Assembly: GCA_015062235.1 (NCBI GenBank)
Contig: SUUZ01000004.1
Span: 17,497 to 81,496 of the forward strand
From: Alphaproteobacteria bacterium
Lineage (GTDB): Bacteria; Pseudomonadota; Alphaproteobacteria; RF32; CAG-239
DNA: 64,000 bases
Direction: 5' to 3'
Made by a program: the position numbers and the translations under genes. The notes beneath the pieces were generated by a model. The model ran no database searches and had not been told where the DNA came from. It saw only the letters and a program-made list of their open reading frames with translations. Positions 33,598 through 34,920 of this stretch are shown piece after piece. The stretch's first letter is position 1. Every line of letters starts with the position of its first letter.

Positions 33598-34920
33598 ATG
33601 TCGACATTATTGAAAAAAATAGCTATTGTTGCTCTTATTGCTTCCGTAGCGCCAACCATAGCAATGGCGAGAGTTAAACCATTGCATGAGTATAAAGGAG
33701 TTCTTAAACAAAAGAAGAACGAAGTAACCTGTGAAAGCAAAGGATATTTGAGTGCTTCTGTTGGTTGTGCAACCTGTAGTGAAGTTACTATATCTGGTGG
33801 TACGACATGTTATAGTTGTAGTCATAACAATACGCTTTATCCTTTTACTCAAGGGGACTATCCTGAAGGGATTGTATGTGATGACAGCTGTACTATACCA
33901 GGGGGAACAACCCAATACTCATGTAGGTGTGATACGGCAGGAGGATACTATTCTAAAGATAGCTTTATTAGCACGACTTCTTTGGTCTATAAGGGTGGTG
34001 TGTTTGAGATGTCTCCTGTTACAGGTGATAACTTGATTTGTTATGATTCTAACTCTTCTTATTGGTCATGTACTTCTGGTACTACTAAAAAATCAGCGTC
34101 TGATCTTGGTTATACAGGATCTTTGTCTGGTAGTTTTACCTTTGCTTCAACTAAAAATGGTTCGTTGAAGCCGTATATATCCTACTATGGAGCATCAAAT
34201 TCTACGAATAGTAATATTGCTACTATTTGTGTAAAACTTAGAGGATTTGAAGTTCCTTTGTATGCAGAAACAGCCTCTAAAGAGACTTGCTTAACCTATA
34301 GTCGTGGCTATGATGCTTTAACTAGAACGAATTATTTCTATTATACTGGTTGTGAGACTGGTGGTAATTGTGTTAGTTCAACTGGAACCTGTGGTGCAGC
34401 AACAACACATAGTGTTACAGGCTGGACTGGTAGTGCTACCAAAACTATAGATTGTAAAGAAGCTACAGGTTGTAATGTCGGCAAGGTAGCAACAAATGCT
34501 TTTTGTTATGGTTCAACATCTGCTTCAGCTAAGGTATATAACAGCAGTGGAGTTACTACTGTTTCTTATAGTGGTGGTAAGATTGGTGGCAAATTTGCGG
34601 CTACGACAGAAAGTGTTGGAAATTATACCTGTGTTAAAATTACTGGTTGTGCTGAAGGTTATGTTGAATCGACACTTAATAGTACAAATCTTAACTTACC
34701 AAAAATACTTGAATCAAATGCTTCAGATGATACAACGTCGTATGATGCTGCTATAGCCTATGATTATAACACTTGTACAATGACTTCTAATTGTACGGAT
34801 ACTACTGATAGGTTGATTTGTCGTATGCCAACAGCTTGTAAAAATGATGCTGGATATTATGACACAACTTGTGATACGGGTTGTTGGGATGGTTTCTTAA
34901 GTTGGTTTATGCCACAATAG
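33598..34920 (+). CDS. Cys-rich, Ser/Thr/Gly-rich secreted protein (440 aa, ~27 Cys), novel
   Basis: Signal peptide MSTLLKKIAIVALIASVAPTIAMA. Recurrent C-x(2-4)-G-Y modules (CESKGY, CDTAGGYY, CAEGYV, CKNDAGYY). No family recognised. SD AAGGAACAAGGA before the ATG and a terminator after. Confidence 0.7.
   Translation: MSTLLKKIAIVALIASVAPTIAMARVKPLHEYKGVLKQKKNEVTCESKGYLSASVGCATCSEVTISGGTTCYSCSHNNTLYPFTQGDYPEGIVCDDSCTIPGGTTQYSCRCDTAGGYYSKDSFISTTSLVYKGGVFEMSPVTGDNLICYDSNSSYWSCTSGTTKKSASDLGYTGSLSGSFTFASTKNGSLKPYISYYGASNSTNSNIATICVKLRGFEVPLYAETASKETCLTYSRGYDALTRTNYFYYTGCETGGNCVSSTGTCGAATTHSVTGWTGSATKTIDCKEATGCNVGKVATNAFCYGSTSASAKVYNSSGVTTVSYSGGKIGGKFAATTESVGNYTCVKITGCAEGYVESTLNSTNLNLPKILESNASDDTTSYDAAIAYDYNTCTMTSNCTDTTDRLICRMPTACKNDAGYYDTTCDTGCWDGFLSWFMPQ

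Follow-up and report, generated by a model that had tools for sequence, protein, structure and literature searches.

The subject of this analysis is a gene for a cysteine-rich protein in a 64-kb stretch of DNA from an Alphaproteobacteria bacterium (contig SUUZ01000004.1), which is called the window below; all coordinates are window positions and refer to the + strand unless stated otherwise. The gene comes after mraZ-rsmH-ftsL-ftsI, from which it is separated by a gap of 209 bp, and is followed by an orphan open reading frame (ORF) rich in Lys and Glu (793/811 amino acids, aa) and then by glgP on the opposite strand. An earlier note, made from the sequence letters, had proposed a secreted protein of 440 aa at this place. 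The ORF was confirmed (Table 1), and its product is identical to NCBI MBE6443851.1, a "hypothetical protein" from a metagenome-assembled genome (MAG) of an Alphaproteobacteria bacterium. The cysteines, put at about 27 in the note, number exactly 27 and make up 6.1% of the protein, compared with 0–2.5% in the other window ORFs of at least 150 aa. The four motifs quoted there are all present (TCESKGY at residues 44–50, CRCDTAGGYY at 109–118, GCAEGYVES at 350–358 and CKNDAGYYDTTC at 414–425), and the Ser+Thr+Gly content is 35.9%, lower than the 40% it had given.

Table 1. Features of the cysteine-rich gene, its product and its transcription signals, by position in the window
Feature	Position	Strand	Description and basis
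Candidate extended -10 promoter element TGgTATAAT	33516..33524	+	In the 209-bp gap past ftsI; spotted by eye
Shine-Dalgarno-like AGGA	33586..33589	+	8 nt 5' of the ATG; sequence
Coding sequence of the Cys-rich protein	33598..34920	+	ATG start, 440 aa
Signal peptide, aa 1-24 (MSTLLKKIAIVALIASVAPTIAMA)	33598..33669	+	Sec/signal peptidase I (SPase I) type by sequence features; no lipobox
Mature N-terminal residues, aa 25-32 (RVKPLHEY)	33670..33693	+	Conserved; family consensus [KR]-V-T-P-x-H-E-Y
N-terminal Cys-rich subdomain, aa 45-120	33730..33957	+	Two beta-hairpins, C-x10-C-x(1-2)-C spacing; strands predicted by AlphaFold2 (AF2)
Hypervariable region, aa 122-403	33961..34806	+	93 of the 102 strain-variable positions; mosaic blocks; pN/pS >1; Cys never changed
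Hairpin repeat 1, aa 273-297 (..TKTIDCKEATGCNVGKV..)	34414..34488	+	hhalign of family sub-alignments
Hairpin repeat 2, aa 332-356 (..VGNYTCVKITGCAEGYV..)	34591..34665	+	hhalign of family sub-alignments
Hairpin repeat 3, aa 395-425 (..DRLICRMPTACKNDAGYYDTTC)	34780..34872	+	hhalign of family sub-alignments
Conserved C-terminal tail, aa 419-440 (GYYDTTCDTGCWDGFLSWFMPQ)	34852..34917	+	Aromatic-rich; invariant among strains
Intrinsic terminator hairpin, core stem CCCTGCG/CGCAGGG, then TTTTGTTTT	34936..34971	+	RNA fold; starts 16 nt past the stop

The clean Sec signal peptide read by the earlier note is borne out by sequence features, which comprise a Lys-Lys n-region (MSTLLKK), a hydrophobic core of 14 residues (IAIVALIASVAPTI, within the 10–15 residues of an h-region) and an A-x-A motif, with cleavage between AMA and R, that is, between MSTLLKKIAIVALIASVAPTIAMA and RV. 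This leader is the sole hydrophobic segment of the protein (Kyte-Doolittle >1.6). A lipoprotein processed by signal peptidase II was rejected, as there is no lipobox and no Cys in residues 1–44, the first being residue 45. The leader is conserved in the protein family described below, and also in an otherwise unrelated Cys-rich protein of another MAG.

In shuffles of the mature sequence, the motif C-x(2-5)-G-Y is significantly enriched (5 observed, 0.81 expected, p = 0.004) and so is C-x5-C (5 observed, 1.66 expected, p = 0.02), whereas C-x(1-3)-C is not (5 observed, 4.76 expected). Of its five C..GY motifs, four recur in conserved form throughout the family. The recurring modules that had been suggested hold for the C-terminal half of the protein, where a unit of about 25–30 residues (phi-x-C-x-[KR]-phi-[TS]-G-C-x(2-5)-G-Y), predicted to form a beta-hairpin, occurs in three copies. 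Repeats 1 and 2 were matched by hhalign with a probability of 93.7% (E = 2e-7), repeats 3 and 2 with 65.8% (E = 6e-5) and repeats 3 and 1 with 44% (E = 2e-4). The N-terminal C..GY segments, though conserved in the family, have no significant profile-profile homology to these repeats.

An AF2 model built with only five close homologs was unusable (predicted local distance difference test, pLDDT, 33), whereas an alignment of 20 family sequences gave a good model with a pLDDT of 78.6, a predicted template modelling score of 0.58 and 333 residues at a pLDDT of at least 70. It is nearly all beta, and the strands of the N-terminal subdomain pair as 58–64/70–76 and 92–100/103–111. Confidence is low in the leader, in residues 18–40 (pLDDT <50) and in the extreme tail, where the protein ends in ...WFMPQ. 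The conserved residues 25–32, predicted to be disordered, are a candidate targeting or assembly peptide.

The gene looks like an independent transcription unit, as it has its own Shine-Dalgarno-like sequence, a strong terminator and a 209-bp upstream gap with a -10-like element. The terminator folds at -25.1 kcal/mol (z = -7.8), and none of 200 shuffled sequences was equally stable. The -10-like element, absent from the output of the consensus promoter scan owing to a weak -35 match, is a candidate for the promoter of the gene. The GC content had been said to be raised, and it is (37.6% against 33.7% for the window). The excess lies entirely at the second codon position (GC2 of 0.544, reflecting Gly, Ala, Ser, Thr and Cys codons), while GC at the third position (GC3) is 0.218 and that of the neighbours 0.18–0.30. 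The GC excess is thus explained by amino-acid composition and gives no sign of foreign origin, and horizontal transfer was ruled out as its cause.

Ten alleles of the window's species differ at 102 of the 440 positions, and all 27 Cys are the same throughout. Residues 1–120 and 421–440 are nearly invariant, with only five variable positions in the N-terminal subdomain. A contig carrying an allele of 80% identity (L012) aligns with the window at 97.3% identity over 6.3 kb, and nearly all differences fall inside the Cys-rich gene: there are 0–1 differences per 100 nt in the flanks, compared with 8–34 per 100 nt between 33883 and 34876. The ratio of non-synonymous to synonymous substitution rates (dN/dS, Nei-Gojobori) in this comparison is 1.65 for the whole gene and 1.78 for its variable part. 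Over 21 kb shared with a contig of a third strain (L015), eleven flanking genes taken together have 116.5 synonymous and 38.5 non-synonymous differences, corresponding to a ratio of non-synonymous to synonymous differences per site (pN/pS) of 0.09, compared with 9.3 and 42.7 and a pN/pS of 1.35 in the Cys-rich gene (Fisher p = 1.6e-13). Here pS is 0.031 in the gene and 0.044 in the flanks, and pN is ten times higher in the gene than in the flanks. These comparisons show the signature expected of diversifying selection in the Cys-rich gene, which is the fastest-evolving gene at the locus; no other gene there has an excess of amino-acid changes.

The variable region is also mosaic. Two haplotype blocks occur in all four combinations, which indicates recombination, and one allele (P0047) is visibly recombinant within a block. 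Every type of substitution occurs, most of them at the first and second codon positions, and there are codon indels. Hypervariability and mosaic alleles would together fit an exposed interaction surface.

A second divergence peak among strains lies in a gene for a TolC-like outer-membrane efflux protein (40634–41986), with 31 and 15 differences per 250 nt at about 41097–41596. This peak is almost wholly synonymous (pN/pS 0.08), which fits the recombinational import of a divergent allele under purifying selection, not positive selection.

Hypervariability that is concentrated in one gene and comes with mosaic alleles might also be programmed: a diversity-generating retroelement could produce it, as could gene conversion with silent cassettes as donors. 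About 71% of the substitutions relative to L012 do involve A in one allele. We nevertheless regard such an origin as very improbable: neither a second copy of any part of the gene (blastn, tblastn) nor a convincing reverse-transcriptase YxDD motif (six-frame translation) was found in the 64-kb window. Moreover, the variation spans about 850 nt, includes codon indels and runs in all directions, not just at adenines, and alleles recur unchanged on many contigs and samples, which points to population-level alleles rather than switching within the cell.

The family to which the protein belongs is small. A word-indexed search of 5.8 billion proteins gave only five clusters, at 100, 87, 80, 51 and 34% identity, and an exhaustive hidden Markov model (HMM) search of 1.84 billion representatives with the alignment of these five clusters gave 22 proteins, 19 of them with E <=1e-10; one weaker match is clearly an artefact of a eukaryotic Cys-rich repeat. 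A word-indexed profile search with a 20-sequence alignment had at least eight proteins among the matches listed. The HMM matches are unnamed proteins from metagenomes or MAGs in tiny clusters and carry Alphaproteobacteria labels. Among GTDB species genomes just one, another MAG labelled Alphaproteobacteria bacterium, has a relative, and neither a scan of viral contigs (IMG/VR) nor JGI metagenome scans gave any; a literature search gave nothing relevant. Twenty-two contigs of independent metagenomes, among them a JGI sample and ENA assemblies, carry the identical protein, and the record name XIEF21 presumably denotes a study of ruminant gut MAGs.

The core alignment of the family (A2, 20 members) covers about 400–450 aa and has 17 invariant and five near-invariant Cys at an overall identity of only 25–36%; over sequences with no more than 25–30% identity, about 21 Cys are unchanged or nearly so. 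Its tail consensus reads G-Y-Y-D-x-x-C-x-x-G-C-W-x-G-x-L-S-W-[WF]. We provisionally define the family by the leader followed by [KR]-V-T-P-x-H-E-Y, the 17-Cys core, three C-x5-C hairpins and the tail, and the window protein has all of these. Several members extend past the tail with CxxCxxGY-type repeats or with C..DGY..CP..CPY..KC repeats, so that the tail is internal in them and marks a domain boundary, not a C-terminal sorting signal. Cysteines are lost and gained in pairs (C60 and C74 lost jointly, C265 and C303 lost jointly, C393 and C399 gained jointly), and C57 and C94 substitute for two other positions in the family. Pairwise change of this kind is the pattern expected of disulfide partners. 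The core Cys count is odd (23, 25, 27 or 29) in 16 of the 20 members, which suggests one conserved unpaired Cys.

In two members from Logan assemblies (P0007 and P0055), a Gly/Ser linker connects the family core with a thioredoxin domain (E = 3.5e-19) and a rubredoxin-like one (E = 2.3e-13), a fusion that hints at redox or disulfide chemistry tied to the family. P0055 may have a tandem copy in the paralog-like P0057, as each of them is on a contig of 4927 nt. The otherwise unrelated protein with the same type of leader (L007:156-2204, MAG JAZSQL010000001.1) is Cys-rich, has 682 aa and no Pfam match, and shares with the family only the leader (MSTLLKKIAV...A-x-A-K-V..L.DY) and the first C..GY motif. 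The rest of it consists of repeats of about 40 aa, "EKC..[DE]GY....C...L.DCPY...Y.KCV", which also form the C-terminal extension of the family member P0015 (residues ~445–597) and occur in P0071; it has only two relatives among 5.8 billion proteins. Exported Cys-rich proteins with this common leader may form a class of their own, specific to the lineage.

In line with the earlier note, which recognised no homologous family, no model of Pfam (E up to 1), NCBIfam, PHROGs or PADLOC matches the window protein, and a sequence-profile search of the PDB at E up to 10 gave no matches. Pfam gave nothing for 20 family members beyond two single-member chance matches, and the CxxCxxGY repeats in the extensions of longer members are also without a match. 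The Foldseek search of an AlphaFold model that the note had proposed, run with the good model against PDB and BFVD, returned nothing below E = 0.1, with template modelling (TM) scores below 0.15. The family is undescribed, and neither the curated libraries nor, by Foldseek, the PDB contain a relative that could be detected. An autotransporter or outer-membrane beta-barrel was rejected because of the missing Pfam match, the ...WFMPQ end and the internal position of the tail in longer members. A phage receptor-binding, tail or anti-phage protein was rejected as well, since PHROGs, PADLOC, IMG/VR and BFVD all gave nothing and the neighbours are chromosomal housekeeping genes, and so was a repeat protein of the variant-specific surface protein (VSP), furin-like or EGF-like kind, given the lack of a Pfam match and of C-x(1-3)-C enrichment.

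Beyond the window's species, the genomic setting varies. In a second clade of higher GC content, the gene sits at a conserved place, flanked by a CheR/response-regulator cluster and a 163-aa/YhdP cluster, with varying orientation. Between genomes of this clade the Cys-rich orthologs are 25–28% identical, compared with 55–87% for their neighbours, which makes rapid divergence a trait of the family. At two loci (L001 and L002) that carry a homolog of 34% identity (P0005), glgP is the next gene upstream of the Cys-rich one; in the window it lies two genes downstream on the opposite strand (37841–40300 region), and the two placements amount to loose residual synteny inside the low-GC clade. The homolog of 51% identity (L005) has yet another neighbourhood. 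A conserved operon partner was rejected, as neighbourhoods differ across clades and no relationship exists between the 163-aa and the 164-aa neighbour.

We hold with moderate confidence that the gene, one of a lineage-restricted orphan family of gut Alphaproteobacteria, encodes an exported, disulfide-stapled, nearly all-beta protein whose conserved ends would anchor or assemble it and whose middle would be exposed to a co-evolving partner. We infer disulfide bonds, export past the inner membrane and periplasm, surface exposure and an anchoring role of the ends from the Sec leader, the pairwise-covarying Cys, the beta-hairpins, the invariant ends, the hypervariable middle, the excess of amino-acid changes and the mosaic alleles. 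The leader would bring the protein to the periplasm, where SPase I would cleave after AMA and the 27 Cys would be oxidised to give a rigid scaffold of two N-terminal hairpins, a central beta region and three C-terminal C-x5-C hairpin modules. The strain-invariant parts, namely the [KR]VTPxHEY peptide, the N-terminal subdomain and the aromatic tail GCWxGxLSWF, would anchor or assemble it. Loops and strands of residues 122–403 would then point outwards, where they would encounter a partner that co-evolves with them (for instance a phage, a host antibody or a competitor molecule), and this partner would drive both the amino-acid diversification and the recombinational shuffling of allele blocks in the window's species.

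Several observations weigh against this proposal. Within the gene, the excess in dN/dS is of moderate significance (one-sided Fisher p = 0.012 and 0.058), and recombination complicates dN/dS estimates as such. Variable sites are weakly enriched outside the predicted strands (27%, compared with 20% within them, p = 0.08). Neither an outer-membrane anchor, a lipobox, a beta-barrel, a known sorting domain nor a dedicated secretion gene was found, and the protein may for this reason stay periplasmic. Lastly, two alleles from another species (P0012 and P0026, L019 versus L008) have a pS of 0.16 and a pN of 0.0042, that is, strong purifying selection like that on the housekeeping neighbour YhdP, and the pN/pS of the P0012 ortholog is 0.026. 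Hypervariability as a property of the whole family is rejected by these values; the diversifying episode is thus specific to the window's lineage, and in other lineages the protein does something that purifying selection protects.

The same purifying selection favours another explanation, namely that of a structural housekeeping protein of the periplasm or envelope in which constraint on the non-Cys residues was relaxed and recombinant segments were imported, with no arms race. Such a protein would suit a single-copy gene with a conserved chromosomal position in one clade and with recurrent envelope genes for neighbours (ftsI here, YhdP, PBP1A and AmiC elsewhere, Lgt in L005), and also the finding of no export signal beyond Sec. 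We consider it doubtful, since relaxed constraint gives a pN/pS of at most 1, not 1.35–1.78, and would not leave pS at the level of the flanks with pN ten times higher, while an imported segment would look like the mostly synonymous peak in the TolC-like gene. That the Cys and both ends are strictly conserved speaks for a functional protein. A chance or decaying ORF could appeal to the lack of annotation and of any known domain. However, every allele keeps the frame of 440 aa intact, the Cys stay invariant in homologs with as little as 25% identity, pN/pS is low in the sister species, and the gene has a Shine-Dalgarno-like sequence and terminator of its own; on the conservation data, this possibility is effectively refuted.

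If the protein leaves the cell without being anchored, it could instead be a soluble effector in the gut lumen (a lectin-like binder, toxin or bacteriocin), the variable region of which tracks an external target or escapes inhibitors. The Sec leader, a Cys-rich protease-resistant scaffold and diversifying selection would fit such an effector equally well, no membrane anchor of any kind was found, and the extra C-terminal Cys-rich repeat domains of some members are typical of extracellular proteins. What makes it an unlikely explanation is the genomic context, in which there is no conserved adjacent immunity or partner gene (the 793-aa ORF is conserved among strains, with a pN/pS of 0.33, and absent at other loci; the 163-aa and 164-aa neighbours of different clades are unrelated) and no secretion system nearby, together with the lack of toxin or lectin domains in Pfam and a conserved C-terminus, unlike that of polymorphic toxins. 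A polymorphic toxin or bacteriocin proper was rejected on the invariant C-terminus, the variable middle, the missing conserved small neighbour and the missing toxin domain.

An exposed disulfide-framework protein of the kind we favour, with positively selected, recombining alleles, has counterparts elsewhere. Chlamydial OmcB and OmcA are likewise Sec-exported, beta-rich proteins of a diderm with about 5–6% Cys; they are thought to be stabilised or cross-linked by disulfides and to have envelope and adhesin roles, and the odd Cys count of the window family would allow OmcB-like intermolecular cross-links. There is, however, no sequence relationship, and the Pfam models Chlam_OMP6 and DUF11 are unmatched by the window protein. 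With lpxC, bamD, ftsI and a gene for a TolC-like protein in the window, the host is an ordinary diderm with peptidoglycan and lipopolysaccharide, where a disulfide-linked substitute for peptidoglycan is not needed. The VSPs of Giardia share with the window protein an invariant Cys framework, richness in Thr, Ser and Gly, G-Y Cys motifs, variable sequence between the Cys and a conserved terminal part. They are eukaryotic, though, with many CXXC motifs, a C-terminal transmembrane helix, a CRGKA tail and switching among many paralogs, whereas the window protein has no CXXC-type enrichment, no transmembrane helix and no Pfam match, is present as a single copy in the window and varies among strains.

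In Neisseria, TbpB, HpuA, PorB and Opa resemble the window gene in their recombined allele blocks, a pN/pS above 1 in the exposed parts and conserved parts for anchoring. HpuA and TbpB (9mr0, 4qq1) are also the nominal top Foldseek matches, but these are not significant (E 0.1–3, TM <0.1); TbpB and HpuA are lipoproteins, PorB and Opa are beta-barrels and none is Cys-rich, whereas the window protein has no lipobox. Flagellin, too, has invariant N- and C-terminal parts around a hypervariable middle, but its termini are helical, it lacks Cys, it is exported by the flagellar apparatus without a Sec leader and no homology was found; polymerisation of the window protein by analogy would be pure conjecture. 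The kind of protein is thus known from OmcB, Giardia VSPs and neisserial mosaic antigens, and the window protein fails every defining test of these three families. A bolder version, which we think rather improbable, sees in it a new fold and a new class of bacterial cell-surface protein, a disulfide-framework variable surface protein or coat of a diderm and a functional analogue of the protozoan Cys-scaffold variant antigens: the N-terminal peptide and Trp-rich tail would dock to the envelope, a free thiol would serve for a covalent dimer or cross-link, and in the rumen or gut phages or host antibodies would exert selection on the variable hairpin loops.

No Alphaproteobacteria of this gut and rumen type are in culture. 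The excess of amino-acid changes, unique at the locus, makes the product of the gene a likely contact point with competitors, phages or host immunity. Should the predicted structure prove right, the protein would add a beta architecture built on a disulfide framework, to which neither Pfam nor, by Foldseek, the PDB has a relative. In metagenomes, the mosaic alleles could act as a high-resolution strain marker for the lineage, and the leader and motif common to other Cys-rich repeat proteins hint at a lineage-specific exported class.

The surroundings of the gene add some minor observations. In the division and cell-wall cluster, mur genes usually succeed mraZ-rsmH-ftsL-ftsI; in the window the cluster (29793–33388) is shortened and the Cys-rich gene takes their place. 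The orphan ORF downstream of it (35357(35411)–37792, 811/793 aa) has no match in Pfam, NCBIfam or PADLOC, and adjoins the Cys-rich gene only in the window's species, where its conservation among strains was mentioned above; it is missing at the loci of more distant homologs. Rfam at gathering thresholds further placed a class A RNase P RNA at 28035–28428 on the - strand, 6S RNA at 52333–52490 (+) and one tRNA at 5758–5830 (+), all of them ordinary housekeeping RNAs.

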